Positions 5,696 through 23,727 of a stretch of 43,492 bases of DNA are shown here, in pieces. Every line of letters begins with the position of its first letter. The stretch's first letter is position 1. Source of the stretch: Gemmatimonadales bacterium (GTDB lineage Bacteria > Gemmatimonadota > Gemmatimonadetes > Gemmatimonadales > GWC2-71-9); contig JBBQDU010000003.1 of NCBI GenBank assembly GCA_038320055.1, forward strand, positions 1-43,492. Direction: 5' to 3'. The notes under the pieces were generated by a model, which was given only the letters and a program-made list of their open reading frames with translations, had not been told where the DNA came from and did no database searches. A program made the translations under genes and the position numbers.

Positions 5696-5724
5696 ATGCT
5701 ACCCCTGTTTGCGGGTCGGGTCAA
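5696..5724 (-). promoter_or_regulatory. Putative sigma70-type promoter TTGACC-N17-TAGCAT
   Basis: -35 TTGACC (5719-5724), exact 17-nt spacer, -10 TAGCAT (5696-5701), 8 nt before the ATG at 5687. Confidence 0.6.
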
Positions 5725-6604
5725 GTTCAGGCCCCTCCTCGGGTTCAGCCTCCACATCCCATCCCGTATCAAGGGCGGCTCGGCGGCTCCGGTCCGCGCG
5801 GCGGCGGCGGCGCACCAGCCACAGGACGGCCAGGGCGGCCACGGCCCAGCCGCCCCCCGCGACGAGCCAATTCCCCAGCGTGTACCTCCGTTTGAGCGCC
5901 CGCTGCCATTCCTGCTCGAACCGGCCGATGGGCAGTCCCGTCGTGGCCAACACGGCCCGCTCGAAGTCCTCCCCTGCCTGGAGCCGATCCAGTAGTGGGC
6001 CGAGCGTACCTGTCGGGTTCCGTCGGGCCAGCTCGGTGACGGCCGACGTCGCGAGGGCGTATGCGGCCTCGGCACTGGACGCCGATCCACGCAGTGCCCC
6101 GTCCAGCGCCGTGAGCGATGGGACCGCCCCTCGGACCACGGCGAGATTGAGTTCGAGTCCGCCCAGCCGCTCCCACTCGCCTGCCGCCCAGGCCGCGTAG
6201 CCCTCATCGAACCAGAGCGGGATGCGTCCTTCGACTGCCTCGTGGAGGGCGAGATGCGCCAGTTCATGCCGAAGGGTGCGGACCAGATCACCCTGATCGG
6301 CACGGAGCACGATGGTGCGGGCGCCCGGCACGGCGATGGCCGCTCCCCAGGACGGAGCGCGGCCCGCCGTCAACGAATCGAGGACACGGCCATCGGGCAC
6401 GACGATGAGGCGGAGAGGACCAGGATCTCGGACACCGAGGCCGGGCCAGTCGGCGGGCCGGTCGGCGACCGTGGCGAGTTCGATGGCGAGGGTTTGTTGG
6501 GGCGGCCACGCGACCGCGGTGACCCTGCCGACCTGAACGGTCGTCGGGGCCCCTTGCAGCAGCAGGCCGAGTACGAGGCCTAGGAGAGCAGGTTGCGCGG
6601 GACC
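5699..6604 (-). CDS. Gluzincin-type zinc metallopeptidase (peptidase MA-like), exported and C-terminally anchored; start uncertain
   Basis: HELAH (HExxH) plus PLWFDEGYA third-ligand motif; C-terminal TM followed by RRRRR. The frame stays open and protein-like to 6604, beyond the GTG at 6400. Confidence 0.8.
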   Translation of the reverse strand, partial: GPAQPALLGLVLGLLLQGAPTTVQVGRVTAVAWPPQQTLAIELATVADRPADWPGLGVRDPGPLRLIVVPDGRVLDSLTAGRAPSWGAAIAVPGARTIVLRADQGDLVRTLRHELAHLALHEAVEGRIPLWFDEGYAAWAAGEWERLGGLELNLAVVRGAVPSLTALDGALRGSASSAEAAYALATSAVTELARRNPTGTLGPLLDRLQAGEDFERAVLATTGLPIGRFEQEWQRALKRRYTLGNWLVAGGGWAVAALAVLWLVRRRRRADRSRRAALDTGWDVEAEPEEGPELDPTRKQG

Positions 6605-7449
6605 TCACCCCCGGCGGCGGCCACGTCGAGCATCTCTCTGCAGCGCTTGGCCCACGGACTGAACTTGTTCGCCTTGTGGCCGTCTCCCCAGGCCTGTACG
6701 GCCTCGTCGCGTTGACCCGCAAGCCACAGGGCACGACCGAGCTCGAAGTGGGCCTCGATCAGATTGGGACCCAGTTTCAAGGTTTTCCGGAGAAAGCTCT
6801 GGGCGTCCTCGTACATCTCGCGCTCCAGGTAGACCAGCCCCAGATAGTAGTGCGCATAAAGCGTGGCTTTGCGGTCGCTGTCCAGACGAATGGCTTTGGA
6901 GAGGTGCTCGATCGCCTCGCCGAAGATGCGCTTCTTCAGACAGATATAGCCGACGTTGATGCGTGCCAGCGCGTTGGCCGGCTCCTTCATCAGGACGCGC
7001 GAGAAGGTGCCAAGCGCATCGTCGTAGTCCTCGTGAAGCATCTGCGCCCACCCCAGCAGCGACAGGGCCTCGACCGCTCCAGGGGAGAGCGCGAGGGCCT
7101 TCTCGAGCGACTGGATCGCCCCGGTGTAGTCACCGAGGGAAATGAGGCTCCACCCCTTCTCGATGAAGGTGGACGCGCCGAGATGATCCGCGTGCACCGC
7201 GGGTCGAGCACCGGAAAACTGGGGTGCCACAGCCGCCGACGCCGCCGCACCCTGCTTGTAGCGGTCGACCAGGCGCCGGATGTCTTCCTTCATCTGCCCC
7301 AAGTCGGTGAGTGTCGTATCCACGCGCTTGAACAGGGCGATGATGTCCTGCTTGAGCGCCTCGCGGTCGGCCGCCGCGGTGGCGGTGCCGAGCCGGGCCT
7401 CGATGTCCTGGAACTGGCGCCGGAGGGCCTCGAGCGGCTGATCGCTCAC
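6580..7449 (-). CDS. TPR protein with N-terminal coiled coil
   Basis: About five TPR units (GDYTGAIQSLEKALALSP, AHYYLGLVYL, AHFELGRAL); 4-nt overlap with upstream cheW. Confidence 0.85.
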   Translation of the reverse strand: MSDQPLEALRRQFQDIEARLGTATAAADREALKQDIIALFKRVDTTLTDLGQMKEDIRRLVDRYKQGAAASAAVAPQFSGARPAVHADHLGASTFIEKGWSLISLGDYTGAIQSLEKALALSPGAVEALSLLGWAQMLHEDYDDALGTFSRVLMKEPANALARINVGYICLKKRIFGEAIEHLSKAIRLDSDRKATLYAHYYLGLVYLEREMYEDAQSFLRKTLKLGPNLIEAHFELGRALWLAGQRDEAVQAWGDGHKANKFSPWAKRCREMLDVAAAGGEVPRNLLS

Positions 7450-7916
7450 GGCGCGCCTCCTTGGGCCGACAACGCCAGTCGCTCGGTCGAGGACAGGAGC
7501 TTCCTGGCGTTGAGGATGATGATCGTCCGGCCGGGGCGGACCACAATCCCGGCGATGTAGGCCGCCGCGAGCCCGCTGACCACCGGCCCGGGCGCGGTGA
7601 TGGTGGTGCTGTCCACGCGCATGACCTCGCGGACCTCGTCGACCAGGAGGCCGATGCGCTGCTCGCCCAGGTCCACCACCATGAGTCGGGTCTCCTCCCG
7701 GATCGGTGCCTCGAGCTCGAACCGCTTGCGCAGATCGACCACCGGCAGGGCCGTGCCCTCATAGGGCACGACGCCTTCCAGGTAGGCGGGAGCGTTGGGC
7801 AGCGGCGCCGGCGTCACGTGCCGCAGGATTCGCTCGACCTGCAGAATGTCGAACGCGAACTCCTGGGTGCCGACCCGGAAGCTGACCACCTGGATGTCGT
7901 CCCCGGAGGCGGTCAT
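7446..7916 (-). CDS. cheW: CheW adaptor
   Basis: From ATG 7916: QVVSFRVGTQEFAFDILQVERI, PLPNAPAYLEGVV, PVVDLRKRF, IGLLVDEVREV. Confidence 0.92.
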   Translation of the reverse strand: MTASGDDIQVVSFRVGTQEFAFDILQVERILRHVTPAPLPNAPAYLEGVVPYEGTALPVVDLRKRFELEAPIREETRLMVVDLGEQRIGLLVDEVREVMRVDSTTITAPGPVVSGLAAAYIAGIVVRPGRTIIILNARKLLSSTERLALSAQGGAP

Positions 7917-8341
7917 GCGGCGGGCGCCTCCGCGAACCGCGCGCCGAGGGCGTCGAGGTCGAGCAACGGCACGAGCCCGCTCTCGGTGCGCGCCACCGCG
8001 GCGGCCCATGGCAGCGCGGAGCCGCCGGGCACGGCTCGGCCGGCCTCGACGAGGACCGACTCGGCGTCTTCCACTTCGAGGCAGATCCGCCGCCCGCCAA
8101 GTTGTACGAGCACGCCGAGATGGCTCGCGACCGCCGGGAAGCACGTGCCGTCGAGCAGCGCGCCGAGGTGGATCAGCGGCAGGATCCGGCCGCGGATTAC
8201 CACGACGCCGCGGACCGAGGCCTCGAGCGACGGCACCGGAAACACCGCGTCGAACGCCAGGACCTCGATGACCTGGTCGAGCGGCAGGCCGACGAGTCGG
8301 CTGTCCGCGCGTACCAGCAGATGGCCCGCCGAGGTCGTCAT
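7913..8341 (-). CDS. cheW: Divergent CheW-like protein
   Basis: From ATG 8341 (ATGA overlap with cheB): [48 protein letters not shown]. Confidence 0.82.
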
Positions 8342-9411
8342 TGTGCCGCCATTCTGGCCAGCTCCTCGGCGACCCGCGTCGCAATGTCGCCGACGGGCAG
8401 CACGTGCGTCGCACCTCCCGCCTGCACGGCTGCGTTGGGCATGCCGAAGATCGTGGCGGTCTCTCGATCCTGTGCGATGCCGACCCCGCCGGCATCGCGC
8501 ATCTGGCGGAGGCCCTCCGCGCCGTCGCGGCCCAACCCGGTCAGCACGACCCCGACCGCGCGGGGCCCGAACGTACGGGCGACGCTCCGAAAGAGCGGGT
8601 CGGCCGCCGGACGCACGCCCCACACCGCGGGCTCCTGGTCCAGCGCCAGGCGGACGTCCTCGCCGGCGGTCACGACGCGCATATGGTAATCCCCCGGCGC
8701 CACGTACGCGGTGTCCGCCAAGAGCGGCGCGCCGTGTTCCGCCTCGACCACGTTGAGCCGACTCTGAGCGGCCAGCCGTTCGGCCAGACTGCGGGTGAAT
8801 TTGGGAGGCATGTGCTGCACGATGAGCACCGCCGCTTGCTGTCCGATCGGGAGCGCGGGCACGACCTCCGCCAAGGCGCGCGGCCCCCCGGTGGACGCCG
8901 CGATCGCCGCGCACTGGCGGGCCCGCCCCGGGAGCGCGAACATCGCCGGCATGTGCGCGCCGCGCGCCGGCCGCGCCAGCACCGGCATCCGGAGGATCGC
9001 GGCGCTCTCCACGGTGCGGAGCGTACCCAGCAACCGCTCGGCGAATCCGGCGATGGCCGCCGGGCTCCGCGCCTCTTCCTTGGCGACGAGATCCACGGCG
9101 CCCAGCTCGAGCGCCCGGATGGCCGCGGCGGTGCCTGGCCCGGCATACGAACTGACGACCACGATCGGGCGCGGCGATTCCGACATGATGTATCCGATCG
9201 CCCCGAGCCCGTCGAGCTCCGGCATCTCCAGATCCATGAGGACGAGATCGGGCGACTGCTCGTGGACCCGCCGTACCGCGTCCATTCCGTTGCGGGCCGT
9301 GCCGACCACCCGAAACTCGGGACTCTCCCCGACGATGTCGGTGAGGAGCCGGCGGAAGAACGGGCTGTCGTCGACGACGAGCACCGTCCGGCGCTCAGAG
9401 AGTCCGGACAC
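8338..9411 (-). CDS. cheB: Chemotaxis methylesterase CheB (receiver + esterase)
   Basis: Receiver VVDDS...MDLEMP; catalytic ASTGG, QHMP, GRDG; RPAADPLF. Confidence 0.95.
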
Positions 9412-9883
9412 CGTGCGCCACCGTGCTCACCTCCACCCGACCGTCGGCCACCCACAGCCTGACCGTTCGGCCGTAGTCGCCACCCGTGGCCTCGCCCTTG
9501 AGCGCGAGGCCGTGAGCGTACAACGCCTGCCGGCACGCGACGATGTTCCGCTCGCCCATCTGGATCGTGCCGCCCGAGGCCAGCCCGCCGAACATGCTCG
9601 CCCCGCCGGCCAGCCGGCCCGTGATGCGCCGAGCGGCGGCGCCGTGCTGCGCCATGAGATCCAGCAGCATGGGCACAGCCGTCTGCGGGAACTTGGCGGG
9701 GCTGGCATCCTTCCGGGCCAGCGCGGGCGACGGCAGCAACACGTGCGCCAGGCCGCCAACGCGTGCCTGGGGGTCGTACAACAGGATCGCGACGCAGCTG
9801 CCCAGGCCGACCGTGGTCAGGATGTCGTCACCGGTCCCGGCGCGCAGATCGGCGACCCTGACGAGAATCTCGGTCCCGCTCAT
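9395..9883 (-). CDS. cheD: Chemoreceptor glutamine deamidase CheD
   Basis: [37 protein letters not shown]. Confidence 0.95.
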
Positions 9884-10698
9884 AGCGGCCGCCGGTAGAG
9901 GCGCTCACGCGGGTCGACGAGACTGAGGCGGTCGCGTGCGGCGCCCGACAGGGTCTCCACCTTTCCGAGTACCAGGTAGCCCCCGGGCACGAGCGCCTCG
10001 GCAAAGGCCTGAAACAGCTGCTCCTGCATGGGACGGTCGAAGTAGATCACGACATTGCGACAGAGGATGAGGTCGTAGCCGGTTCGGATCGGCGGCTCGC
10101 AGGTGAGGTCGAGCGCCCGCACCTGGACCCGTCGGCGAACGTGCTCCACCACGCGCCGATCGGTTCCACACGCCTCGAAGTAGGGCCGAGCCAGCTCATC
10201 GGGCATCTCGGTCAGCGCTTCCGCGGGGTAGCGGGCCGCGCACGCCCGGTCGAGGCTCGTCCGGTCGATGTCGGTGGCGTCAATCGTGAGGCGGCCCAGC
10301 TCGACGCCCCTGCCGCCGCCGTCGAGATGGGCCGCCGCCAGGATCGCGAGCGTGTACGGTTCCTCGCCGGAGGCACACCCGGCGCTCCAGACACGGACCT
10401 CGGGCCGCCCGGCGTCGAGCAGCGCGGGCAGCACCTGCCGCCGAAGGAGATTCCAGGTCTCCGCGTTCCGATAGAACCGCGTGACGTTGATGGTCAGCGC
10501 GTCCCGAAGGCGGTCGTATTCCCCCGGCAGGCGGTCGAGCAACGCGCGGTAGTCGTCGTAGGTATGGACCCCGCACGCACGCATGCGGACGGCGATCCGC
10601 CGCCGGATACACTTGTCCTTGTACACCGCGAGGGCGAAGCCGCTGGTGTGCGTGATCTGCCGCGCCAGAGCCGCGAAGCCCATGTCGTCGCCGGTCAC
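9880..10698 (-). CDS. cheR: Chemotaxis methyltransferase CheR
   Basis: GTG 10698 (GTGA overlap with upstream gene); LTINVTRFYRN, VWSAGCASGEEPY, ATDID, DLILCRNVVIYF. Confidence 0.94.
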   Translation of the reverse strand: MTGDDMGFAALARQITHTSGFALAVYKDKCIRRRIAVRMRACGVHTYDDYRALLDRLPGEYDRLRDALTINVTRFYRNAETWNLLRRQVLPALLDAGRPEVRVWSAGCASGEEPYTLAILAAAHLDGGGRGVELGRLTIDATDIDRTSLDRACAARYPAEALTEMPDELARPYFEACGTDRRVVEHVRRRVQVRALDLTCEPPIRTGYDLILCRNVVIYFDRPMQEQLFQAFAEALVPGGYLVLGKVETLSGAARDRLSLVDPRERLYRRPL

Positions 10699-12311
10699 GG
10701 GACCATGTCCAGCATCTCCAGGTTCGCGCGCGCGAGGGCGTGGCCGGGGTTCAGCGTGGTCGCCCGGCTCCACCGCTCGCGCGCCATCGCCTTGTCCCGG
10801 CGCTTGTAGGCGATGTTGCCGAGCTTGAAGTACAGGTCGTCGCCCAGATCCGGCGCCAGCTTCGCGGCGCGCTCGTACGCCTCGCGGGCCTCGTCGTAGC
10901 GGCCGTTCCGGTAGAGGATGTCGGCCAGGTTCTTCGAGATCTGCGGCAGCGACGGATCCTCCGACAGCGCCGCGCGGAGGGCCGCTTCCGCCCCGGCCAC
11001 GTCGCCGGTGAGCTCGAGCAGGACGGCGAGATTGTTCTGCAGCGCCGCGCTCGCGGGATACTCCGCGATCCCGCCCCGGGCCGCCCGGAGCGCCCCGGGC
11101 GTGTCGTCGTGGCCGGCGCTCGCGAGCGTCGCCGCCCAGTACCACAGCGCCGGCGCGGCCGTGCCACCGTGGAGCTGGCGCGTCTGCAGCAGACGCACCA
11201 GCGCGACCGGGAAGTCGCCGCGCTTGAGCGCCAGTACGCTCCAGCCGAGCATGATGCGGGCATCGGCGGGGGCGCGCGAGGCGGCGGCCCCGAGCGCCGC
11301 TTCCGCCTCGTCGAGCCGATTGAGGCGCTCGAGCGCGTAGCCCCGGTTGTGCAGCGCCGCGGCGCCGCCGGTGCCGGCCGTCGCCGCTCGCTCGAACGCC
11401 TCGGCGGCCTCCTCCCACCGCGACTGGCGCACCGCGATGAGACCGAGGTAGAACGGGGCGCTCGGATCGGCCGGCCGCAGCTCGGCCACCCGGCGAAATT
11501 CGCGGAGCGCTTCGTCGAGCATCGCCGCCTTGTAGAAGGCGACCCCCAGATTCCGATGCTCCTCCACCCGTCCCTCGGGGACTTTCGGCGCGGCCGGCGC
11601 CGAGGTCCCGACCCGGTGCGCGAAGCCGGCGGTAATCAGCCCGAACAGCGCCTTCCCGACCTCGAAGTCGACCAGACCCGAAGTGTCGATAAGCGCCTGC
11701 ACGTCCCGGGAGCCGTCGAGCAGCGGGTACAGGCGCTGTTGCTCCGCCGAGAGGTCGCTCGTGGACTGCGCGATGCGGGCGGGGTCGATGGCGAAAATAA
11801 GGTCGAACGAGGGAATCTTCTTTTCAATGAGACTCCACTCGTCCACCCGCCGGGCGCCCTCGAGCAGCAGGAACTCGGGATTGATACGGACGAGAAAATC
11901 CTGTTGCTCGGGCTGGAGACCGGCCTCGAAGTTGAACGTTCCGGAGGTCCACGTAAACAGAAAGTAGACGGCCTCTTCGATCTGGAGGCGCATATAGCTC
12001 TCGAGCTCGTCGCGCCGGAGCGCGCCCTCGTCGACGAGAATCTCGCCGAGCTTCCGCCCGCGGTTCCCGTCCTGACGCGCGATCGCCTGCTGGAGGACTT
12101 CCTGCGTGATGCGCCCGCTTCGCAGGAGAATGTCGCCCAGCCGATCCCGGCGGTTCACGATCGCGGCGTAGACGATGCGGCCATCGTCGAAGTAGATCGT
12201 CCCGAAATTGTGCCGGTCGGCCAGGGCCAGGCAGCCGGTGCGGCGTCCCAGGAACAGGAGCTGGATCACGTCGGGGAGGCTGGCCTCCTTCAGGCTTCCC
12301 TTGATCGCCAT
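10695..12311 (-). CDS. DUF4388 (PatA_N-like) + MshEN-like + TPR protein
   Basis: Starts MAIKGSLKEASLPDVIQLL...RRTGCL (TGATG overlap); tandem RLGDIL/KLGEIL motifs; W-x-x-G-x-F-x-F; LLLEGARRVDEW; C-terminal TPRs. Confidence 0.88.
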   Translation of the reverse strand: MAIKGSLKEASLPDVIQLLFLGRRTGCLALADRHNFGTIYFDDGRIVYAAIVNRRDRLGDILLRSGRITQEVLQQAIARQDGNRGRKLGEILVDEGALRRDELESYMRLQIEEAVYFLFTWTSGTFNFEAGLQPEQQDFLVRINPEFLLLEGARRVDEWSLIEKKIPSFDLIFAIDPARIAQSTSDLSAEQQRLYPLLDGSRDVQALIDTSGLVDFEVGKALFGLITAGFAHRVGTSAPAAPKVPEGRVEEHRNLGVAFYKAAMLDEALREFRRVAELRPADPSAPFYLGLIAVRQSRWEEAAEAFERAATAGTGGAAALHNRGYALERLNRLDEAEAALGAAASRAPADARIMLGWSVLALKRGDFPVALVRLLQTRQLHGGTAAPALWYWAATLASAGHDDTPGALRAARGGIAEYPASAALQNNLAVLLELTGDVAGAEAALRAALSEDPSLPQISKNLADILYRNGRYDEAREAYERAAKLAPDLGDDLYFKLGNIAYKRRDKAMARERWSRATTLNPGHALARANLEMLDMVP

Positions 12312-14948: not shown

Positions 14949-15413
14949 TTACCGTCCGAAAAGCGCTTTGAGGCTGGCGTCGAGCTCGGTCTCGAAATTT
15001 TCCGCCAGCATCGGTGGGGCTGCTGCCACGTCCCGCGGCGCCGCGGCCGCGAGCTGACGCACCAGCCGGTCGAAGAACAGCCGCACGATGCCCACCGAGG
15101 TCTCGGGCCCGAACACCACCAGGCCGATCCACCGCCCCCGCGGCGTCGGGAACGCGGCGAGCATGCAGCTCTGCCGCTGCCCGTTGTGCACGAGCGCCTC
15201 GTACGGCGTGGCCCCCATGAGGCGGGCCAGCTCGTCGGTCGAGGCCACGATGCCGGCGCCCAGCGCGGCGGCGCTCATGACGTCCAGCGAGCGGGAGAAG
15301 CCGTGCTGCGCCACCACCTGCCCCGAGCTGGTCATGAGCAGCGTCAGGCGGGCCGCACTCTCGGCGAGAAACGTCTCGAGCGGCTCTGCCACCCACGGCT
15401 CGAGTGCCCGCAT
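14949..15413 (-). CDS. mglB: Roadblock/LC7 protein, MglB-like
   Basis: 154 aa; LLMTSSGQVVAQHG, AAALGAGIVASTDELARLMG, VVFGPETSVGIVRL; immediately upstream of mglA. Confidence 0.8.
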   Translation of the reverse strand: MRALEPWVAEPLETFLAESAARLTLLMTSSGQVVAQHGFSRSLDVMSAAALGAGIVASTDELARLMGATPYEALVHNGQRQSCMLAAFPTPRGRWIGLVVFGPETSVGIVRLFFDRLVRQLAAAAPRDVAAAPPMLAENFETELDASLKALFGR

Positions 15414-15760
15414 CAGCCGAGGCGCTCCGCCGCCTCGAGCATCGCCAGGCGGGCCAGGCCGAGATCGGCCTCGGGGCCCACGACGGCCACCAGCACCAGG
15501 TCGTTGGGGCCGGGCGCCGCCAACACGCTCCCCGCCTCGCCCCTGAGGTGCACAAAGGCCGGCGGACCGACGCCGGCGGCGGCCGCGGTACGCGAGAGCC
15601 GTCCGACCAGACTCCCGGTCAGCGCCGCCGCCGCCTGACCATCCACATCGTCCATGAGCTGCTCCGCCACCACCAGGCCGTCCGACGCGGCAACCACGAG
15701 CGCGCCGCGTACCCCGGGGATCCGGGTGACCTGGTCGAGCGCGGTCTGCGTGGCGGTCAT
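15413..15760 (-). CDS. Roadblock/LC7 protein (second paralog)
   Basis: IPGVRGALVVAASDGLVV, AAAALTGSL, ADLGLARLAM; ATG 15760 overlaps the upstream stop. Confidence 0.85.
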   Translation of the reverse strand: MTATQTALDQVTRIPGVRGALVVAASDGLVVAEQLMDDVDGQAAAALTGSLVGRLSRTAAAAGVGPPAFVHLRGEAGSVLAAPGPNDLVLVAVVGPEADLGLARLAMLEAAERLG

Positions 15761-16647
15761 TCCGACACCTCCAGCCACGCGCGCGCGGCCCGTGCCGCCC
15801 GCTCGGCGACGAGGGTCACCCTCGCCATGGGCAGCGACGCCTCGCGCGCCGCGAGCAGCATCGTGTCCGGCGTCGGCGGCGTGAGCACGATCTGGCCACC
15901 GGGCGACTCGACCGCGATGACGTGCCAGCTGCCCAACCCTAGGAGGCGCGTGGTGCGCGCGGCCTCCCGCGACACGCCCGCCAGCTGGGCCGCCACACGG
16001 TCGCCCGCGTCGTGACCGTCCGGGCCCTCGAGCCGTCCACCGAGTCGGAGGCCCCGCGCATCGACGAGCAGCAGACCTCGCTCACCGCCGTCCAGATCAT
16101 CGAAGAGTGATGGCCGACCGCGCGGCGCGCCCTGGGCTGCGGCGGTCGGCGGCATCGGGGCCTCGAATTGGGCCGGTGCGTCCGGCTGGGCCGCCCCGGC
16201 CCCCACCGGCTCCGCCTCCGCCTGGGACGAAGCCACCGCGGCCGCGCGGACCTCGGCCCCGATCCGCGACAGCGCGCCGGGAATCGAGCGGTCGTCCGGA
16301 TCCACGTCCAGCGCGCGCTGCAGGTAGTCGAGCGCGGCAGCCGGGTCGCCCGCCCGGTAATAGAGGAAGGCGATGCCCTTGAGCGCGCCGCTCCGCATCG
16401 GATCGAGCTGCAGGGCCGACGACCAGGCGTCGAATCCCCCGGCCAGGTCGTCACGGTCCACGAGCACGCGCGCGAGGAGATCGTGCGCATCGGCCAGCCC
16501 GGGATAGTGCACGATGCCTCCGCGCGCGACCTTGTAGGCCGCATCGAGCTGACCCCGGCGGCGCAGCGCCTCGGCGAGCTCGAGGAACGCGAGGCTCCCC
16601 GGCTCGTCGGCGAGGCGTGCGGTCAGCGCGCGGATGTCGTCAGTCAT
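15757..16647 (-). CDS. TPR + C-terminal Roadblock/LC7 fusion protein
   Basis: From ATG 16647: AFLELAEALRRRGQLDAA and three further TPR-like units, Ala/Pro linker, then GLLLVDARGLRLGG...VAAQLAGVSREAARTTRLLGLGSW Roadblock pattern. Confidence 0.8.
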   Translation of the reverse strand: MTDDIRALTARLADEPGSLAFLELAEALRRRGQLDAAYKVARGGIVHYPGLADAHDLLARVLVDRDDLAGGFDAWSSALQLDPMRSGALKGIAFLYYRAGDPAAALDYLQRALDVDPDDRSIPGALSRIGAEVRAAAVASSQAEAEPVGAGAAQPDAPAQFEAPMPPTAAAQGAPRGRPSLFDDLDGGERGLLLVDARGLRLGGRLEGPDGHDAGDRVAAQLAGVSREAARTTRLLGLGSWHVIAVESPGGQIVLTPPTPDTMLLAAREASLPMARVTLVAERAARAARAWLEVSE

Positions 16648-17689
16648 GGTAGCGCTCCAACTCTCTGAGAATCGTCTCCGCCGCCTGGCGCAGGCGCTCG
16701 ACCGACGAGGTTTCCTCATCCTCGCCCGGGGTTCTCGTGTCGAGGCGGAACCACGACGCCCAGAGATCGAGCGCCTCGCGGTGCCGCCCGAGGGCGGCGT
16801 AGCACAGTCCGAGCAAACGCCGCGCCTCCGGCATGAGCGGATCGGTCTGCAGCAGCTCCTCGAGCGCCCCGGCCGCGAGCCCGTACTCCCGCTGGGCGAG
16901 CGCTTCACGGGCGGGTACGAGCAGTGCCGCCAGATCGCGACCCGGCTCCGCGTCCCGACCCGGGTGCGCCGGATCCTCCAGGGTGACGACGCCGGCGGTG
17001 GTCAGCCCGTAGACGGTCCGCGCCACTTCGAACTCCGAGCGGCCCAGCACTTCCGCGAGCGAGTGCAGGTCGCGCGCGCCGTCGACAGCGGCCAGCACCT
17101 CCCACTCGAACGGCACCAGGTCGAGCGGTTCCCCGCCCTGCGCGTCGGGAGCCGGAAGCCGTGGGACCATCCGGAGGTGCGACACCTTGGACCCGATGCG
17201 CGACCATTCGTCGATCCGGCGCGCGGCCTCCATGAGGAGCGCCTCTGTCGGAAAGCGGACCGGCGCTTCGACGGCCGCCTGGCAGACCGCCCCTTCCTCG
17301 AAGCGGAAGTAGCCCTCCGACCAGCGCATGAGCTCGAAGACGGCTTCCTCGATCTGCGTCTTGAGCTGCCGGTCCAGCTCGCGGCGCGTGATGACGCCGA
17401 GGCCCACCAGGATGTCGCCCAGGCGCCGAGCGTCGCCCCCGCTCTGCATGCTGCGGGCCCGCTCGATCTCGGCGCCGGTGATCTTCCCGGCCCGTACCAG
17501 GCGCGCGCCGAGCGGTTGCGGATCGCTGCCGACCGCGGCGGCGACCACGCCGCCGCGGTCGAAACAGACGGTGCCGGCGCTCTGCCGAAGCTCGGATGTG
17601 ACCCGCAGCACCCCGCTCTTCCGGCCCAGGTCGAGCAACTGGAAGACGTCCGGGATGTGCAGGTCCTTGAGCGGCCCTTCGAGCGCCAC
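16640..17689 (-). CDS. DUF4388 + MshEN-like protein with C-terminal TPR
   Basis: GTG 17689: ALEGPLKDLHIPDVFQLL...RKSGVL, PLGARLV/RLGDILV, WSEGYFRF, LLMEAARRIDEW; paralog of 10695-12311. Confidence 0.87.
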   Translation of the reverse strand: MALEGPLKDLHIPDVFQLLDLGRKSGVLRVTSELRQSAGTVCFDRGGVVAAAVGSDPQPLGARLVRAGKITGAEIERARSMQSGGDARRLGDILVGLGVITRRELDRQLKTQIEEAVFELMRWSEGYFRFEEGAVCQAAVEAPVRFPTEALLMEAARRIDEWSRIGSKVSHLRMVPRLPAPDAQGGEPLDLVPFEWEVLAAVDGARDLHSLAEVLGRSEFEVARTVYGLTTAGVVTLEDPAHPGRDAEPGRDLAALLVPAREALAQREYGLAAGALEELLQTDPLMPEARRLLGLCYAALGRHREALDLWASWFRLDTRTPGEDEETSSVERLRQAAETILRELERYHD

Positions 17690-17691
17690 GG

Positions 17692-20373
17692 CTAGCCCAC
17701 GGACGCGGTGAAGATGTGCTGGAGGTCGCGGGCCGAGCGCGCCCGCGTCCGCGCCTGCGACGCATACGGACCGGCCGGATCCAGCTGCACCACGCGCTCC
17801 CATGCCCGGACGGCCCGATCGAACTGGCGTTGTCGGGCGAGCGCCGCGCCCTCGTGGTACAGCGCGCCGGCGTGCTCAGGATCGAAGCGAAGCACGCGCT
17901 CGAACGCCTGAAGCGCCTCGGCGGTGCGGCCGTCCTCGAGCAGCGCGCGGCCCAGCGCGGTGAGCGCTTCGAGCTCGTAGGGATCGGCCTCGAGCAGCCG
18001 TACCAGGACGTCGATGGTCGCGCGCGGAGCCTCGGTGCGGCGGAGCAGGTCCGCCAGCGCGAGCGCCGCGGCGCCGTAGGTCGGGAGCAGATCCAGCGCC
18101 CGCTCGTACGCCGCGCGCGCCGCCGGCCAGTTCCCTCGCTCCTCCTCGATGCCACCGAGCTCGAACCACACGCGGACGAGCGAGGGGTCGAGCTGCAGCG
18201 CCGCATTGAAGGCGGCGAGCGCCGCGGCCCGGTCGCCCAGGCGCGCGGAGACCTGCGCCTGCAGGTGGAACAGATCGGGACGGCCGGGCGCGAGCGTCTG
18301 GGCCTCGCGAATGCAGTCGAGCGCGCCGAGCGCATCGTGCACGGCCAGCCGCACTCGCGCGCGGGCCACGAGCACCTCGACATCCCCCCGAACTCGGCAG
18401 GCCAGCTCGTCGGCGAGCGGAGCGGCCTCGCCGGCCCAGCCGAGGGCCAGGAGCGCGCGAATCTCGCCGAGGGTGGCGTCGGCGTCGTCCGGCATGGCCG
18501 CGCGAGCGGCCCGATAGCGCTCGAGTGCCTCTCCGTAGAGGCCCCGCTTGGCGAAGATGTCGCCCAGCAGGACGGCGGTGGCCCCCGGCTCGGCGCCGCG
18601 CACCTGGGCCCGGCCCAGCTCGGCCGAGGCCAGATCGAGCAACCCTTTGGCGATGTAATCGCGCGCCAGGACCAGCACGTCTCCCCCGGTTCCCACGGCC
18701 GCCGACGTGGCGGGCGTCAACTCCGCGAACAGCTGGTCGAGGGCCGGCGGATCGAAGGTGAACTCGCCTCCCAGCTGCTCGCCGGGCACCTCGGCGCCCA
18801 GTTCGGGCGCGATGGCGATCGTCGGGTCCTCGTACTGAAGGTCGATCGTCAACGAGAACTTCTGCGGCACGTAGAGCGGCTCGAGCTCGAGGGCGAGCCG
18901 CGTTTCGCGCAGGGCCCCGTCGAAGTCGCCCAGCTGGCTCAGAACGAAGCTCAGGTTGTAGCGCGCGCCGGCCATCCGGGGATCGGCGTCCACCGCCCGG
19001 CCGAACGCGTTGCGCGCGTCCTCGAATCGGCGCAGCTCCATCAGCACGAGCCCGACGCCGTTCCAGGCGACGGCGCTCCCGCTCTGCTCGCCCAGCGCGA
19101 GCTGGTATTCGTCGAGCGCGGCGCGAAGCTGGTGGCGCTGGAGGCAGAGCAGCCCGAGGTTGAGCCGGGCGGTGAACAGCGGCCGGTCCCCCGCGAGTGC
19201 CCGGCGGAACGCGGCGACAGCGGCGTCGCCCGGCTCGCTGGCGCGCACCACCCCGAGAGTGTTCCAGGCCAGCTGGTAGTCGGCGTCCGCGGCGACGGCG
19301 CGCTCGTAGGAGGCGATCGCGTCGTCCCGACGCCCGGCCTGGTGGAGGCACACGCCGCGCTCGTTCCAGAGCTTGGGCGACTCGGCGTGCTCGCGCACCA
19401 GCATGTCGTACAGGTCGAGGGCCTCGCCCAGCTCGCGACGCAGGAGATGCACCTCGGCCATCGCCTGGAGGGTCATGCGGCGGTCTTCGCCGGCCTCGAG
19501 CGCCAGTCGATATTCGCCGAGCGCCTGGTCGTGCAGCCCCTTTTGCCGAAGCGCGAGGCCCAGATTGTAGTGCGCGAGCGCGCCCCCCGCGACGATCTGG
19601 GGCCGCGCGCCCGTGCGCAAGCCGCCCCCCGCCGGGCCGCCGTTCACCCCGTACCGCTCGAGGGCGAGGTTCGCCTGGGCTCGGGCCAGGGTCGGATTCA
19701 GCTTGATGGCGCGCTTGGTGGACTCGCGCGCTTCCTCGTGGCGTCCGAGGTCGCCGTACAGAAACGCGAGGAGGTAGTGGGCCTCCGCATACTCCGGGTT
19801 CCGTTCGATGGCGCCGCGGAGCGCCTCGAGTGCGGGCTCGTTGAGGCCGCGGTTGTAGAGCACCTCGCCGTGATAGAAGCGGGCCACCGCGCTGGTGGGC
19901 TCCGCGGCACAGGCGCGGGCCAGCCAGTCGGTGGCGGTGTCCAGGTTGCCGCGCGCCTTCTCGGCGAGGCCGAGCTGCAGCATGGCGGGGACGTCGGCAG
20001 GGTGCCACGCGAGCAACGCCTGAAACTCGGCGATGGCCTCGGTGTGACGGCCGAGGGCGGCGTGCGCCCGGGCCAGCTCCCAGCGGGCGTCGCGGTCTTC
20101 CGGATGCCGGCGGACCCGCTCCCGCAAGTCGGTTACCCGGCGGTCGTAGTGCCCGCTCTCCCGGTAGGCGATGTCGAGGTTGCTTTGCGCCACCTGCATC
20201 CGCGGATCCAACTCGAGCGCGCGGACGAACTCGGTGATCGCGTCGTCGATCAGCCCCTTCTGGTAGTAGAGCACGCCCAGATTATTGTGGGCGCCGGCAT
20301 CGGCGGGGTCGATCCGGTGGGCAAAGGAGCGCAGGACGGCGAGGTCGCGCTCCGACAGAACGGGCCCGGGCAT
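17692..20373 (-). CDS. Large cytoplasmic TPR scaffold (893 aa)
   Basis: Many TPRs along the whole length (AHNNLGVLYY, AHYNLGLAL, AWNGVGLVL); no signal peptide seen. Confidence 0.9.
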   Translation of the reverse strand: MPGPVLSERDLAVLRSFAHRIDPADAGAHNNLGVLYYQKGLIDDAITEFVRALELDPRMQVAQSNLDIAYRESGHYDRRVTDLRERVRRHPEDRDARWELARAHAALGRHTEAIAEFQALLAWHPADVPAMLQLGLAEKARGNLDTATDWLARACAAEPTSAVARFYHGEVLYNRGLNEPALEALRGAIERNPEYAEAHYLLAFLYGDLGRHEEARESTKRAIKLNPTLARAQANLALERYGVNGGPAGGGLRTGARPQIVAGGALAHYNLGLALRQKGLHDQALGEYRLALEAGEDRRMTLQAMAEVHLLRRELGEALDLYDMLVREHAESPKLWNERGVCLHQAGRRDDAIASYERAVAADADYQLAWNTLGVVRASEPGDAAVAAFRRALAGDRPLFTARLNLGLLCLQRHQLRAALDEYQLALGEQSGSAVAWNGVGLVLMELRRFEDARNAFGRAVDADPRMAGARYNLSFVLSQLGDFDGALRETRLALELEPLYVPQKFSLTIDLQYEDPTIAIAPELGAEVPGEQLGGEFTFDPPALDQLFAELTPATSAAVGTGGDVLVLARDYIAKGLLDLASAELGRAQVRGAEPGATAVLLGDIFAKRGLYGEALERYRAARAAMPDDADATLGEIRALLALGWAGEAAPLADELACRVRGDVEVLVARARVRLAVHDALGALDCIREAQTLAPGRPDLFHLQAQVSARLGDRAAALAAFNAALQLDPSLVRVWFELGGIEEERGNWPAARAAYERALDLLPTYGAAALALADLLRRTEAPRATIDVLVRLLEADPYELEALTALGRALLEDGRTAEALQAFERVLRFDPEHAGALYHEGAALARQRQFDRAVRAWERVVQLDPAGPYASQARTRARSARDLQHIFTASVG

Positions 20374-20377: not shown

Positions 20378-20998
20378 TCAGGGGAGACGAATGGCGTCGA
20401 AGATCGCCCGCAGCGACGGCGTGTCGGGCAGCAGCAGGAAGTGACCGCGCAGGGGCTCGAGGGCGCCTTCCACCCGAAACGAGGTCTCGACGCAGAAGAC
20501 GAAGTCCCGGTCGTGGCCGAAGTTGAGGTAGGTGGTCGTGAGCACCGCGGCGTTCAGGTCGATCACGAGGCTCGGGACGGACGGGACCAGCATCATGCCC
20601 ATGAAATCGCTCAGCGCGTTCATGTACGCGCTGGCGAGGATGTTCCCCGCCTCCTTGAGCCCCGACTGCTCCATCACGCCGAACTCGCCGGTCGTCCCGG
20701 CACTCCGCCGGAGCAGTATATCACAGAGCGTTCGGGCCGACCCTTCCGGAAACAGGACCAGGGTGCGGCCGGTGAGATCGCCCATCATCTGCATCAGCAC
20801 CGCGGCGACGACCTCGTCGGGGCGGCCCACCATGTCGGTGACCTCCTCGAGCGGCCGGACGTTCACCTCGGGCACGGCAATCATGATGGTGCGGTTGGTC
20901 ATCTGCGACAGCGCGGTGGCCGCGTGGCCGGCCCCGATATTGGCCACCTCGCGCAGCGCGTCGAGCTGCAGTGCCTTCAAGCCCCGCACGTCTTCCAT
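20378..20998 (-). CDS. cheC: CheY-P phosphatase CheC
   Basis: Two E-x-x-N sites (DALREVANIGAGHAATALS, LKEAGNILASAYMNALS); FLLLPD near the C-terminus. Confidence 0.93.
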   Translation of the reverse strand: MEDVRGLKALQLDALREVANIGAGHAATALSQMTNRTIMIAVPEVNVRPLEEVTDMVGRPDEVVAAVLMQMMGDLTGRTLVLFPEGSARTLCDILLRRSAGTTGEFGVMEQSGLKEAGNILASAYMNALSDFMGMMLVPSVPSLVIDLNAAVLTTTYLNFGHDRDFVFCVETSFRVEGALEPLRGHFLLLPDTPSLRAIFDAIRLP

Positions 20999-21012
20999 AA
21001 GTCGCTCTCTCC

Positions 21013-22881
21013 CTACAGCAGTGCCGCGACGTCGAGCACGAGCGCCGGAGCGCCGTCGGCCAGGATCGTCGCGCCGCCCACGTACGGCGGCATGCCGCGC
21101 GGGGCGTCGAAGGGGGCCACCACGATGTCCTGCTGCCCGAGCAGGGCGTCCACCACGAGCGCGCTACGCCGCTCGCCGATCTCGAGGATGACGGCCGGCG
21201 GCCGGGCCGGGGCGTCGCCCTTGGCGCTCGACACCAGGTCGCGCAGGCGCACGGTCGGAATCACCCGCTCGCGCACCACCAGCGCCTCGCGCTGCCGGAG
21301 CGAGGTAACCGCCCGAGGATCGAACGACACCGTCTCGGCTACGTACGCGAGCGGCACCGCGAACCGCTCGCCGCCGGCGTCGGCCAGGAGCGCCCGCACG
21401 ATGGCGAGCGTCAGCGGCACGCGAATCAGGAAGGTCGTACCCTTGCCGACCTCGGTGCGGATCTCGAGTGTCCCGCCCAACGCGCGCACCCGCGTCATGG
21501 CGACATCCACCCCGACGCCGCGGCCCGACACGCCGCTCACCGCCTCCGCCGTGCTGAACCCCGGCCGGGCGATCAGCCGGAGCAGGAGGTCGTCGCTCGC
21601 CGTATCGTCGGCCGCGTCGGCATAGCCTTCGCGCCGGGCCTTGGCCAGGATCGCGGCGCGGTCGAGACCGCGCCCGTCGTCGCTCAACCGCAGGGTGACG
21701 CTATTCCGCTCTCGGGCGGCCGAGAGGAGGATCCGGCCCTCGGGCGGCTTGCCGGCGGCGGCGCGGGCCTCGGCGGACTCGATGCCGTGGTCGGCCGCGT
21801 TCCGGATCAGATGCAGCAGGGGCTCGCCGATCTCGTCGAGGATGGCGCGGTCGAGCTCGATCTCATCGCCCTCGACGTCCAAGCGGATCTGCTTGCCCAG
21901 ATCGCGCGAGAGGTCGCGGACCAGTCGCGGGAATCGGTCGAACACTTCCCCGACGGGCGTCATCCGCGACGCGATCACTTCCGCCTGCATGCCCGACACG
22001 AGGCGCGAGATGCGGTCGCTCAGCTCGGTGAGCGCGGGGTCGTCCGACGCGACCGCCATGACTCCGAGCCGGTTCTTCGCGACGACCAGCTCGCCCACCT
22101 GTTTCATCAGCCGATCCAGTCGCTGCAGATCCACCTTGATCTGTCGGTGGCGGCCGGCGCCATCGAGCTCGAGCCCGGACGCTTCCTCGATGCGCACCGA
22201 TTCGATCTCGCCGGCCGCGCGGATCGCGGCGACCAGCACCTCGTCTGCCTCGCGCGACTCGATGCGGAAGCTGACCCGCCCGTCGAAGGCCTCCCGCTCG
22301 AGCTGGGCGAAGGACGGACGAACGGCGGAGATCACGCCGAGCACCTCGGCGCGGCGCACCGCGAGGATCGCGCGGGCGCCGCGCATGACCGCGTCGGACT
22401 TGATCAGCATGCGCACCGTGCGGGCCCGGGGGGCATCGGTCGCGCGCCGGCGTGGCGCACCCGCGACGGCCGTCGGGTGAACGCCCGGTCCCGCGTCCCG
22501 AGTAGGGCCGCCGGAGGCCGCTTCGAGTGCGGCCGCCAACGCCGGCTCGGCCAACGGATCCCGCCCGGCGGCCGCCTCTTCCACGCTCCGGCCGAGCGTA
22601 TCCACGGCACGGAAGAGCAACTCGAACGTCCCCGCGCGGACCATGACCCGGCCATCCCGCAACGCATCCAGGAGGCTTTCCATCCGGTGCGCCAGCTCGG
22701 CCACGCCGGTGAACCCCATCGTGGCGGCCATGCCCTTGATGGTGTGAATGGACCGGAACAGCCCGCTCACGGCGTCGGTGGCCGCGGGATCGCGCTCCCA
22801 CTGGAGCAAGAGGTGGTTGCAGCTGCTCAGGTGCTCACGGCTCTCGGCCAGGAAGAGCGCGGCGTACTTCGAGATGTCCAC
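21013..22881 (-). CDS. cheA: Chemotaxis histidine kinase CheA
   Basis: HPt FRSIHTIKGMA; P2-like segment; LDRLMKQVGELV; HLIRNAADHG, DDGRG, PGFST, SGRGVG; C-terminal CheW domain. Confidence 0.96.
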   Translation of the reverse strand: MDISKYAALFLAESREHLSSCNHLLLQWERDPAATDAVSGLFRSIHTIKGMAATMGFTGVAELAHRMESLLDALRDGRVMVRAGTFELLFRAVDTLGRSVEEAAAGRDPLAEPALAAALEAASGGPTRDAGPGVHPTAVAGAPRRRATDAPRARTVRMLIKSDAVMRGARAILAVRRAEVLGVISAVRPSFAQLEREAFDGRVSFRIESREADEVLVAAIRAAGEIESVRIEEASGLELDGAGRHRQIKVDLQRLDRLMKQVGELVVAKNRLGVMAVASDDPALTELSDRISRLVSGMQAEVIASRMTPVGEVFDRFPRLVRDLSRDLGKQIRLDVEGDEIELDRAILDEIGEPLLHLIRNAADHGIESAEARAAAGKPPEGRILLSAARERNSVTLRLSDDGRGLDRAAILAKARREGYADAADDTASDDLLLRLIARPGFSTAEAVSGVSGRGVGVDVAMTRVRALGGTLEIRTEVGKGTTFLIRVPLTLAIVRALLADAGGERFAVPLAYVAETVSFDPRAVTSLRQREALVVRERVIPTVRLRDLVSSAKGDAPARPPAVILEIGERRSALVVDALLGQQDIVVAPFDAPRGMPPYVGGATILADGAPALVLDVAALL

Positions 22882-22884
22882 TCG

Positions 22885-23247
22885 TCAGCCCAGGACGCGC
22901 TGCACGGCCTCGAGCACGCGGGAGGGCTGGAAGGGCTTGACCACGAAGTCCTTGGCCCCGGCCTGAATGGCTTCGACCACCAGGGCCTGCTGGCCCATGG
23001 CGCTGCACATCAGGATCTTTGCATCGGGATCGGTCTTGCAGATCTCGCGCACCGCTTCGATCCCGCCCATGTCGGGCATCACGATATCCATCGTCACCAG
23101 GTCGGGCTTGAGCAGGTGGTACTTCTCCACCGCCTGCGAGCCCGACTCGGCCTCGCCGACGACCTCGAACCCGGCCTGCGTCAGGATGTCGCTGATCATG
23201 GTGCGCATGAAGATGGCGTCATCGCAGACAAGCACTGTGTGGCTCAC
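22885..23247 (-). CDS. cheY: Response regulator CheY
   Basis: DDAIFMR, TMDIVMP, MCSAMGQ, KPF; resembles Bacillus/Thermotoga-type CheY. Confidence 0.93.
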   Translation of the reverse strand: MSHTVLVCDDAIFMRTMISDILTQAGFEVVGEAESGSQAVEKYHLLKPDLVTMDIVMPDMGGIEAVREICKTDPDAKILMCSAMGQQALVVEAIQAGAKDFVVKPFQPSRVLEAVQRVLG

Positions 23248-23289
23248 AGACCCCCTCCGTGCAGTTCCGGGTGATTCGTGCGGCGGACA

Positions 23290-23727
23290 CTAGCTCCCGA
23301 TGATCGGCGCCATCAGCGCATCGACGTCGAGAAGGATGAAATGCTGGTCATCGCGGATACCGACCGCCTTCACCAGTCGAGGGTCGATACCCGGCAACTC
23401 GGCCCGGTCCGCGATCGAGTGTTCGGACACCTCGAGAAAGTCGAGCACCTGGCCCACGCCCAGTCCGTACCGGCGGCCCGCCACATCCATGACCACGATG
23501 GCCCCCTCGTCCTCCGCCTGGCGCGGCTGGTGAAGCAGGCGGTGGCCGTCGAGCACGGTGAGCAGCGTCCCCCGGACGTTGACCAATCCCTCGATGGCCT
23601 CGGCGACCCCGGGAATCCGGGTGGCCGGCAGCCGCGGCAGGATCTCACGCACGATCCCTGCCGGGGCCGCGCAAATAAGCGCACCGATGCGAAAAATGAC
23701 GGCGTGGAGCGTCGGAGAGTCAGCCAT
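23290..23727 (-). CDS. cheW: CheW adaptor (first gene of the che-mgl block)
   Basis: From ATG 23727: IVREILP, TRIPG, EGLVNVRGTLLTVLDG, YGLGVGQV, ILLDVDAL. Confidence 0.9.
   Translation of the reverse strand: MADSPTLHAVIFRIGALICAAPAGIVREILPRLPATRIPGVAEAIEGLVNVRGTLLTVLDGHRLLHQPRQAEDEGAIVVMDVAGRRYGLGVGQVLDFLEVSEHSIADRAELPGIDPRLVKAVGIRDDQHFILLDVDALMAPIIGS

Follow-up and report, generated by a model that had tools for sequence, protein, structure and literature searches.

We describe a block of 19 co-oriented genes that fills positions 5699-23727 of the minus strand of contig JBBQDU010000003.1 from a Gemmatimonadales bacterium (assembly GCA_038320055.1), the whole 43.5-kb contig being referred to as the window. 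The block encodes a chemotaxis-type (Che) pathway, the polarity GTPase MglA next to an MglB-like protein, two proteins in which a PATAN domain is fused to tetratricopeptide repeats (TPRs), a membrane metalloprotease and an ATPase with two AAA+ domains derived from the replication initiator DnaA. It is made up of two separable modules that usually travel together and is not one strictly indivisible pathway. A structure model supports binding of the conserved C-terminal tail of the ATPase in a groove of the PATAN-TPR protein encoded directly downstream. By analogy with known systems, we read the block, with moderate confidence, as a non-flagellar signalling supercluster that may control the polarity of type IV pili.

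The source genome (2.7 Mb, 302 contigs, 89% complete) has 70% G+C, which leaves every frame apparently open, and genes were therefore called from third-position G+C (GC3) frame analysis together with start codons lying beside the preceding stop. The domain content of the window proteins was taken from Pfam. This mapping confirmed the 19 co-oriented genes and the domains listed for them in a first-pass annotation of the window, as well as its statement that stop and start codons mostly overlap with no gap wider than 42 nt. According to our own start calls, 11 junctions are overlaps of 1-17 nt and the gaps measure 2, 3, 4, 5, 14 and 42 nt, the widest separating the first cheW from cheY; the exception is the peptidase gene, whose start is unclear. 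The genes of the block, all on the minus strand and given from first to last, are:

23290..23727, minus: cheW, first gene of the block, 145 aa (Pfam CheW 87.6 bits; ATG at 23727)
22885..23247, minus: cheY, single-domain response regulator, 120 aa (Pfam Response_reg 108 bits)
21013..22881, minus: cheA, 622 aa, with Hpt, P2, H-kinase_dim, HATPase_c and CheW-like domains (five Pfam domains)
20378..20998, minus: cheC-type phosphatase, 206 aa (Pfam CheC 77.8 bits, two stretches)
17692..20373, minus: all-TPR protein, 893 aa (many Pfam TPR families; position conserved)
16640..17689, minus: PATAN (DUF4388)-TPR protein, gene 6, 349 aa (Pfam DUF4388 107.8 bits)
15757..16647, minus: TPR-Roadblock fusion, 296 aa (Pfam TPR_2 and Robl_LC7, the latter 24.3 bits)
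15413..15760, minus: Roadblock/LC7 protein, 115 aa (Pfam Robl_LC7 38.5 bits; weak match to PDB 7f8m, E 6e-6)
14949..15413, minus: mglB-like Roadblock GTPase-activating protein, 154 aa (phmmer E 3.3e-9 to M. xanthus MglB 6h5b)
14341..14943, minus: mglA, Ras-like polarity GTPase, 200 aa (E 9.6e-73 to M. xanthus MglA 5ymx)
12311..14344, minus: tandem DnaA-domain-III AAA+ protein, 677 aa (Pfam Bac_DnaA 293 bits, two stretches)
10695..12311, minus: PATAN (DUF4388)-TPR protein, gene 12, 538 aa (Pfam DUF4388 123.9 bits, and TPRs)
9880..10698, minus: cheR methyltransferase, 272 aa (Pfam CheR 163.5 bits, and CheR_N)
9395..9883, minus: cheD, 162 aa (Pfam CheD 85.4 bits)
8338..9411, minus: cheB methylesterase with a receiver (REC) domain, 357 aa; alternative start at 9384 (Pfam CheB_methylest 211.5 bits, and Response_reg)
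7913..8341, minus: cheW, 142 aa (Pfam CheW 62.4 bits; least conserved gene of the block)
7446..7916, minus: cheW, 156 aa (Pfam CheW 117.7 bits)
6580..7449, minus: TPR protein, 289 aa (Pfam TPR families)
5699..6604, minus: Peptidase_MA_2 metalloprotease, start unclear (Pfam Peptidase_MA_2 45.5 bits)

Conservation and modularity of the locus

The neighbourhood analysis was seeded with the tandem DnaA-like ATPase, as the first-pass annotation had proposed. A scan that took one genome per species gave 263 relatives, from which the best 80 loci were carried forward. Seventy-eight of these 80 carry the label Gemmatimonadales, Gemmatimonadota, Gemmatimonadaceae or Gemmatimonadetes, and the other two lie on short contigs. 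These two loci, L019 and L064 (contigs of 4 and 7 kb, ATPase identity 59-70%), come from bins labelled Solirubrobacterales and Bacillota; the values for L019 equal those of the Gemmatimonadales contig L021 in every column, and the labels are probably binning errors rather than signs of transfer. The 80 loci were then searched by tblastn with the 19 window proteins, a gene being scored as present at a coverage of >50%, and 40 Gemmatimonadales loci had enough flank on both sides for comparison. All 19 genes are collinear on one strand in 32 of them. The remaining eight lack one or two genes by the tblastn criterion, mostly the first downstream cheW, with the order unchanged; this 142-aa cheW (7913..8341) falls under the criterion in six of the 40 loci. 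Across the Gemmatimonadales loci, identity by tblastn ranges from 54 to 80% for the ATPase, from 90 to 98% for CheY and from 80 to 95% for MglA. The 19-gene arrangement is not due to chance. The order of the block is thus conserved in Gemmatimonadales, and the claim that its genes form a conserved unit was upheld both here and on the distant contigs described below.

We also tallied ATPase matches in a phylum sample of 401 genomes, which takes in the unpublished genomes G157, G057, G182 and G097, these being counted but not drawn on for any locus or sequence. Every family matches the ATPase query because all have a true DnaA. Matches of the tandem type, that is strong or two-part ones, occur in most genomes of the own family, in many of the order's second family and in some genomes of other families of the class, and were not seen in this sample in three families outside the class.

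The locus was further examined in seven genomes from other families of the class. Three of them keep the full cluster, two of these with an ATPase of one domain only (392-395 aa). The other four have just ileS, rluD, the tandem ATPase, the PATAN-TPR gene, the peptidase and a CheY-like gene at the locus, and che and mglAB genes are missing there; in the three of these four genomes that were searched, MglA is located elsewhere in the genome. The opposite variant is seen in G036, a genome of the same order, in which the locus reads ileS, lspA, rluD, cheW, cheY, cheA, cheC, TPR, PATAN, Roadblock, Roadblock, mglB, mglA, PATAN-TPR, cheR and cheB; the ATPase, cheD, both downstream cheW genes and the peptidase are absent. 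Both variants speak against one obligate pathway, and because of the minimal loci and the ATPase-less locus we distinguish two modules. The single pathway put forward in the first-pass annotation did not hold up, as the ATPase occurs without che and mglAB in four of seven genomes, and the Che and MglAB genes without the ATPase in one lineage. The PATAN-TPR gene (gene 12) is the sole gene present in every variant and sits between the modules. The peptidase belongs to the older core of the cluster.

More distant relatives were sought in metagenomes. A scan with the family member P0278 found no relative there; a scan with P0166, a family member of 35% identity, returned 80 loci, mostly true DnaA, and the 12 with a match spanning the tandem were examined. 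Their GC content lies between 0.29 and 0.58, and their ATPases are 18-31% identical to that of the window or undetectable by tblastn. Even so, MglA is encoded directly upstream of the ATPase in nine of the 12 loci and the PATAN-TPR protein directly downstream in 11; cheR follows in 10, and then cheD, cheB and a TPR protein where the contig is long enough, with the counterpart of the 289-aa TPR gene still following cheB in the low-GC contigs. Since several of these loci are near-identical, they amount to about 5-6 independent lineages. Pfam searches confirmed the content of two loci, the flanks of which differ: one is bordered by genes for a DHH phosphoesterase and an inositol monophosphatase, whereas the other has accB, a gene for a PilT-like ATPase, accC and thiE upstream and genes for an AAA_22 protein, CheW, a methyl-accepting chemotaxis protein (MCP) and CheW downstream. 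An order that is kept at such divergence amid changing surroundings speaks for a functional unit of MglA, the ATPase, the PATAN-TPR protein and the adaptation enzymes. In a search of representative sequences, full-length relatives of the tandem ATPase were found down to 34% identity. A search with a distant member gave "Gemmatimonadetes bacterium" and "Candidatus Cloacimonetes bacterium 4572_55" as the only informative labels, and Gemmatimonadota is the commonest phylum among the nearest ATPase clusters of the ESM Atlas.

The tandem DnaA-derived ATPase and its PATAN-TPR neighbour

The ATPase starts directly at domain III of DnaA, its residue 5 aligning to residue 111 of the B. subtilis protein, and residues 5-228 are about half identical to B. 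subtilis domain III (E 1.3e-55). In the AlphaFold (AF2) model, with a mean predicted local distance difference test score (pLDDT) of 85.3, a first AAA+ domain (AAA+1, residues 5-235) is followed by a confidently predicted helical middle domain (287-392) and a second AAA+ domain (AAA+2, about 415-630). Residues 239-285 and 634-664 are disordered, and the protein ends in a conserved tail (654-677), of which the terminal helix (668-676) is predicted with low confidence. The best Foldseek match is DnaA domain III, with a template modelling (TM) score of 0.92 to 8bv3; apart from DnaA, the fold search yielded generic double-ring AAA+ proteins only, and the middle domain had no match. By Pfam, the ATPase matches neither domain I (DnaA_N) nor domain IV (Bac_DnaA_C, PF08299) of DnaA. 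The only PF08299 match of the genome lies on another contig (C34) and belongs to the true DnaA, which is separate from the block.

In an alignment of 36 family members, K51, D108, D109, an SDRPP stretch, R154, R158 and R207 of AAA+1 are invariant or nearly so. From what is known of DnaA, we take these to be Walker A (K51), Walker B (D108 and D109), sensor I (SDRPP), box VII (R154 and R158) and sensor II (R207). The motifs of AAA+2 are kept within the order, its Walker A GKT is lost in one family, and the whole domain is absent from the one-domain forms. The ATPase scores 423.4 bits with the DnaA equivalog model TIGR00362 (cut-off 343.9) and 149.3 bits with the Hda model TIGR03420, below the cut-off of 194.8, and it has two domains, not one. 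It thus has in common with the DnaA/Hda family the domain III fold and, in AAA+1, all ATPase and arginine-finger motifs, but differs in its two copies of domain III, the helical spacer, the lack of domains I and IV, the putative docking tail and the signalling neighbourhood. Public sources name its homologues DnaA or DnaA/Hda, many of those at JGI being called "chromosomal replication initiator protein", and 5117 scored public matches include tandem ATPase homologues alongside true DnaA. The annotation of tandem proteins without domain IV as DnaA is probably a systematic error in Gemmatimonadota genomes.

The last 24 residues of the ATPase are its most conserved part outside AAA+1 in the 36 members: E659, W665 and E674 are invariant, and S657, K660, W663, P666 and R671 are nearly so. 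The tail persists in the one-domain forms, and a related amphipathic C-terminal end is found in the low-GC lineages. In addition, the stop codon of the ATPase gene and the start codon of the PATAN-TPR gene (gene 12) share 1 nt, both in the window and in almost all of the 62 loci with intact copies of the two genes. The conservation of the tail and this overlap led us to model the tail with the PATAN-TPR protein. The complex model combined the full PATAN-TPR protein (538 aa, 36-row alignment) with ATPase residues 630-677 in three runs, and three controls were included. The complex reached a score of 0.85, while the best of the three controls reached 0.17; a score of 0.85 is attained by 58 of 80 solved complexes and by two of 110 mismatched pairs, counts that are only rough because own alignments were used. 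The runs share at least 65% of their contacts, and the pLDDT of the partner is 61-63. In the models, tail residues 654-677 contact the concave face of the TPR region (residues 283-493), including conserved Asn, Gln and Lys residues there. The model supports binding of the tail in the groove of the PATAN-TPR protein.

TPR domains clamp the C-terminal peptides of partner proteins, as in co-chaperones. The ATPase tail is likewise short and conserved, follows a disordered linker and is modelled in a concave groove; it differs from such peptides in being Trp-rich with an amphipathic end, and its owner, the client, is an AAA+ ATPase whose gene lies upstream of, and overlaps with, that of the TPR partner. 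This resemblance also cuts the other way, together with the roughness of the calibration: as TPR-peptide complexes are common among solved structures, the score of 0.85 may partly reflect likeness to them. Two small checks agree with the docking model. Conservation is slightly higher at the 45 positions of the interface than at the remaining 249 of the TPR region (0.78 versus 0.71), the difference being weak (permutation p ~0.02). In the lineage without the ATPase, the PATAN-TPR protein is shortened to 430 aa, and changes or deletions affect nine of the 15 interface positions that are otherwise conserved, a comparison drawn from this single lineage. The first-pass annotation had placed the ATPase among the outputs of MglA; nothing in our analysis points to such a link, and the steadiest partner of the ATPase is the adjacent PATAN-TPR protein.

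Signalling parts, type IV pili and other possible functions

The Che set of the block is complete by Pfam, with CheA (Hpt, dimerisation, ATPase and CheW-like domains), three CheW proteins, CheY, CheC, CheD, CheR and CheB. The cluster CheA is the only H-kinase_dim match of its genome. The CheY translation shows residues that we take, from knowledge of the family, to be the acidic pocket, the phospho-accepting Asp and the conserved Ser and Lys. The window encodes no receptor, and two MCPsignal genes, one of the HAMP-MCP and one of the GAF-MCP type, are found on other contigs.

The GTPase is a true MglA encoded beside an MglB, as the first-pass annotation had stated. Its match to M. xanthus 5ymx covers residues 1-198, the P-loop and a TVPGQ stretch being identical to those of the M. 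xanthus protein, and T. thermophilus 3t12 is matched with E 4.6e-64. The MglB candidate directly upstream of mglA matches the MglB proteins of M. xanthus and T. thermophilus with E 3.3e-9 to 2.3e-7, although it stays below the curated cut-offs (37.4 versus 200 bits for NCBIfam MglB and 16.8 versus 23 bits for Pfam Roadblock). The 893-aa TPR protein is a possible effector or scaffold of MglA, by analogy with SgmX; in the accessible part of PMC11580455, MglA recruits SgmX, a protein with 14 TPRs, and thereby activates pili.

Both PATAN domains (PF14332) span about 160 residues on a model of 122 positions, which indicates a helical insert. The NCBIfam model NF053729, which is related to the c-di-GMP-binding part of MshE, matches the insert of gene 12 (residues 57-107) with 45 bits at a cut-off of 38, and also the N-terminus of the PilB of the same genome. 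On the insert of gene 6 (residues 59-112) it scores 36.2 bits. The cyclic di-GMP (c-di-GMP) input proposed in the first-pass annotation is plausible as judged from sequence, with both inserts matching the model and that of gene 6 falling just short of the cut-off; c-di-GMP may be bound by both PATAN proteins. The inserts are matched by the same model as MshEN-type receptors, the N-termini of MshE- and PilB-like proteins, but in this block the candidate motif lies within a PATAN domain and not at the head of a secretion ATPase. A preprint on Synechocystis (bioRxiv 10.1101/2021.06.11.447907), in its accessible part, notes a resemblance of the PATAN insert to the repeats with which pilus and secretion ATPases begin, and shows that PATAN on its own can bind PilB1 and PilC and is sufficient for a reversal of phototaxis.

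The genome has the machinery that such a pathway could act on, with a PilB scoring 734.7 bits (cut-off 675.65) and two PilT-family ATPases above the cut-off. Across the phylum, 117 of 121 sampled genomes carry a PilT-family gene, a tally that includes the unpublished G097 and G057. Most genomes of the two cluster-rich families have 3-5 PilT-family matches each, and those of families without the cluster have 1-2. The pilus link is compatible with the distribution of PilT, which does not test it, since PilT is near-universal with or without the cluster. Several points weigh against the proposed control of pili: this lack of discrimination, the absence of any pil gene among the window proteins by Pfam, the sub-threshold c-di-GMP motif of gene 6, the closeness of AAA+1 to real DnaA, which leaves room for a role directed at DNA or DnaA, and the fact that the link is drawn by analogy. 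Two observations on pilus-type ATPases may be added. On contig C59 (L085:20-2179), a 719-aa PilB/GspE-like ATPase carries a C-terminal receiver domain and is a possible target of the cluster CheA. In a low-GC lineage, accB and accC flank the gene of the PilT-like ATPase mentioned above (L178:6359-7453), which lies three genes ahead of the mglA-ATPase pair; in no other locus was a pilus-type ATPase seen close to the conserved block.

We propose that one module comprises the Che pathway, MglA and MglB, the two further Roadblock proteins, the long TPR protein and a PATAN-TPR adaptor, with receptors encoded elsewhere, and that the other comprises the DnaA-derived tandem AAA+ ATPase, the PATAN-TPR protein and the membrane metalloprotease. 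Receptor input would set the activity of CheA and the phosphorylation of CheY, with methylation-based adaptation. Phosphorylation would bias the switch of MglA between its GTP- and GDP-bound states, as Frz does in Myxococcus, and the two Roadblock proteins and the long TPR scaffold could assist. The two PATAN domains might read c-di-GMP through their MshE-type helical inserts and, by analogy with the PatA-type regulators of cyanobacteria, contact the pilus motor proteins PilB and PilC. The AAA+ protein, tethered by its invariant tail to the PATAN-TPR groove, could work as an ATP-dependent switch or as an oligomerising scaffold. The output would be the placement or activity of type IV pili, in twitching or adhesion, and not flagella. 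We infer the direction of signal flow, the pilus link and the role of ATP from these comparisons.

The closest known system is that of Myxococcus xanthus, in which Frz, MglA, MglB, MglC, RomR and SgmX share with the block a Che-type pathway, MglA, MglB, Roadblock paralogues and a long TPR protein. In this block the parts are encoded together, whereas mglA of Myxococcus lies apart from its partners according to the accessible part of PMC4316618, which also describes mglA genes near PATAN genes. The block in addition has two PATAN-TPR proteins with candidate c-di-GMP motifs, the tandem AAA+ protein and the metalloprotease as integral parts. The cyanobacterial Tax and Pix systems with their PatA-type (PATAN-REC) regulators likewise combine a Che-like pathway with PATAN domains, which serve there as the output towards PilB1 and PilC and the helical insert of which is shared with pilus and secretion ATPases. 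As PATAN is fused to TPRs here and not to a receiver domain as in cyanobacteria, any coupling between CheY and PATAN must be indirect. MglA/MglB and an AAA+ protein are not mentioned as parts of Tax/Pix in the accessible text of bioRxiv 10.1101/2021.06.11.447907. The Frz/MglA/SgmX system of Myxococcus, the PATAN pilus regulators of cyanobacteria and, as far as the accessible text of PMC4316618 goes, MglA-PATAN neighbourhoods are thus known already, but we did not find described, in the literature searched, the fusion of these parts into one conserved block or a tandem DnaA-derived AAA+ protein with a dedicated, putative docking tail. We came across no paper that connects a DnaA-like ATPase to MglA, PATAN or Che genes, although the supplementary neighbourhood tables of PMC4316618 may list such loci. 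In this literature, the repurposed initiator ATPase has no described counterpart, in line with the earlier remark that no characterised system is known to have this combination.

Front-rear polarity governed by MglA is understood almost wholly from Myxococcus, where input, GTPase and effectors are scattered over the genome. Here, the parts of polarity control are encoded together and conserved in a widespread phylum of soil and sediment, with two candidate c-di-GMP inputs added. What the block offers is an inventory of polarity-control components beyond the model organisms, a protein pair that can be tested and a probable case of annotation error.

It is unlikely, in our judgement, that the block governs some other activity at the cell surface (gliding, a developmental switch, the production of exopolysaccharide or biofilm) through a Che pathway of the "alternative cellular function" type with MglA as its hub. 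The non-flagellar context and the membrane metalloprotease in the conserved core would fit such a function, as would the candidate motifs for c-di-GMP, a messenger commonly tied to matrix and adhesion, and Myxococcus MglA also controls gliding, as stated in the accessible part of the sources. Against this, the window holds no gliding or polysaccharide genes (the genome was not searched for Glt/Agl or exopolysaccharide genes), and the published work on PATAN concerns, in its accessible part, pilus motors, with the name of the domain going back to PatA of heterocyst patterning.

A coupling to replication or the cell cycle is unlikely as well. The ATPase would join or cap DnaA oligomers or bind single-stranded DNA, with the PATAN-TPR protein as its regulator, and chemosensory, c-di-GMP and polarity states would gate initiation or chromosome positioning. 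The half-identical AAA+1 with all its motifs retained in 36 sequences, the fold match and the score above the NCBI DnaA equivalog cut-off agree with this, and the loss of domains I and IV would be expected of a regulator rather than an initiator; moreover, the persistence of the ATPase without che and mglAB at the locus means that its core job need not be motility. On the other hand, neither dnaA nor dnaN nor an origin lies close to the ATPase gene (the true DnaA is encoded on another contig), and its conserved neighbours are signalling, scaffold and membrane protease genes (in distant relatives mglA, cheR, cheD and cheB) and not replication genes. The sub-threshold Hda score does not favour it either, and the loss of Walker A from AAA+2 in one family and of the whole domain in two others would suit a scaffold or switch equally. 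As AAA+1 keeps the complete oligomerisation interface of DnaA, the ATPase could co-assemble with the real DnaA. We consider it rather doubtful, and less likely than a replication role in general, that a duplicated DnaA domain, hung by its tail on a c-di-GMP-sensing PATAN-TPR protein, co-assembles with DnaA so that sensing and polarity gate replication. If the ATPase did communicate with DnaA or DNA, motility signalling would be linked to replication, and no such link from a chemosensory pathway or small GTPase to an initiator is described in the literature searched.

It is improbable that the modules are two unrelated systems, sharing no function, that were kept adjacent by genome inertia. Each module does occur alone, in the four minimal loci and in G036, and all of these variants lie at the same IleRS/LspA/RluD locus, which could be an insertion hot spot. 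However, the interleaved order MglA, ATPase, PATAN-TPR, CheR, CheD, CheB and TPR protein is kept in contigs of GC 0.29-0.58 with differing flanks, in which the ATPase is only 18-31% identical. Overlaps of start and stop codons also span the module borders, with 4 nt between MglA and the ATPase and 4 nt between PATAN-TPR and CheR, and the PATAN-TPR gene present in every variant lies between the modules.

An ordinary flagellar chemotaxis operon with passenger genes is extremely improbable and was rejected, in agreement with the first-pass annotation. In its favour, many flagellar systems likewise have a full Che core that includes CheC and CheD, and the flagellated carrier G021 shows only the cluster's CheA. 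However, Flagellin_N has no match in the 89% complete genome itself, and of 61 genomes of the order 10 have flagellin, with none among four of the own genus; the cluster is common in the order although 51 of the 61 lack a flagellin match. The flagellated, cluster-bearing G045 and G067 have a further, separate CheA at a distance of no more than about 50 kb from their flagellin genes.

Boundaries of the block and neighbouring genes

The gene directly upstream of the block is given here for context:

23720..24793, minus: RluD-like pseudouridine synthase (Pfam PseudoU_synth_2 and S4)

It overlaps the start of the first cheW by 8 nt, and lspA and ileS follow further upstream. The RluD-like gene is directly upstream in the full, minimal and ATPase-less variants wherever the flank of the relatives reaches. 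The block is probably longer upstream and includes the RluD-like gene, which is possibly co-transcribed with it. A scan for promoters and terminators found one promoter-like site (0.8 expected) and two terminator-like sites (4.7 expected) and was uninformative on the limits of the operon. A terminator-like hairpin with a T-run at 23749-23766 (minus) falls in the final codons of the RluD-like gene, immediately ahead of the start of cheW; this region has an unusually low third-position G+C and may mark a regulatory boundary, terminator-like sites not being enriched over shuffled sequences.

The peptidase gene at the other end of the block has an HExxH motif at residue 113 of its stop-to-stop frame, and its translation shows a hydrophobic N-terminal segment and a C-terminal segment resembling a membrane anchor. 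The frame is open from 6604 with coding-like GC3 and has no ATG, GTG or TTG before 6400. The N-terminal part (6400-6604) reads like a signal peptide or membrane segment, and the start is unclear because this part is conserved in relatives and yet lacks a canonical start. A rare start codon, several CTG codons lying just past the upstream stop, or a sequence error are possible explanations.

Downstream of the peptidase gene, a 572-aa TPR protein is encoded at 3530-5248 (minus), and its position is kept in relatives (42-88% identity). The approximately 450 nt that separate this gene from the block contain a 70-aa open reading frame (5475-5687, minus) and the sole promoter-like site found (5724-5696). 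The 572-aa TPR gene may be a 20th member with its own transcription unit. Elsewhere in the window, a gene for a CdaA-type diadenylate cyclase, a c-di-AMP synthase (32734-33528, minus), adjoins one for a TMEM260-like O-mannosyltransferase (30380-32986, minus), and the stop-to-stop frames of the two overlap by about 250 nt.

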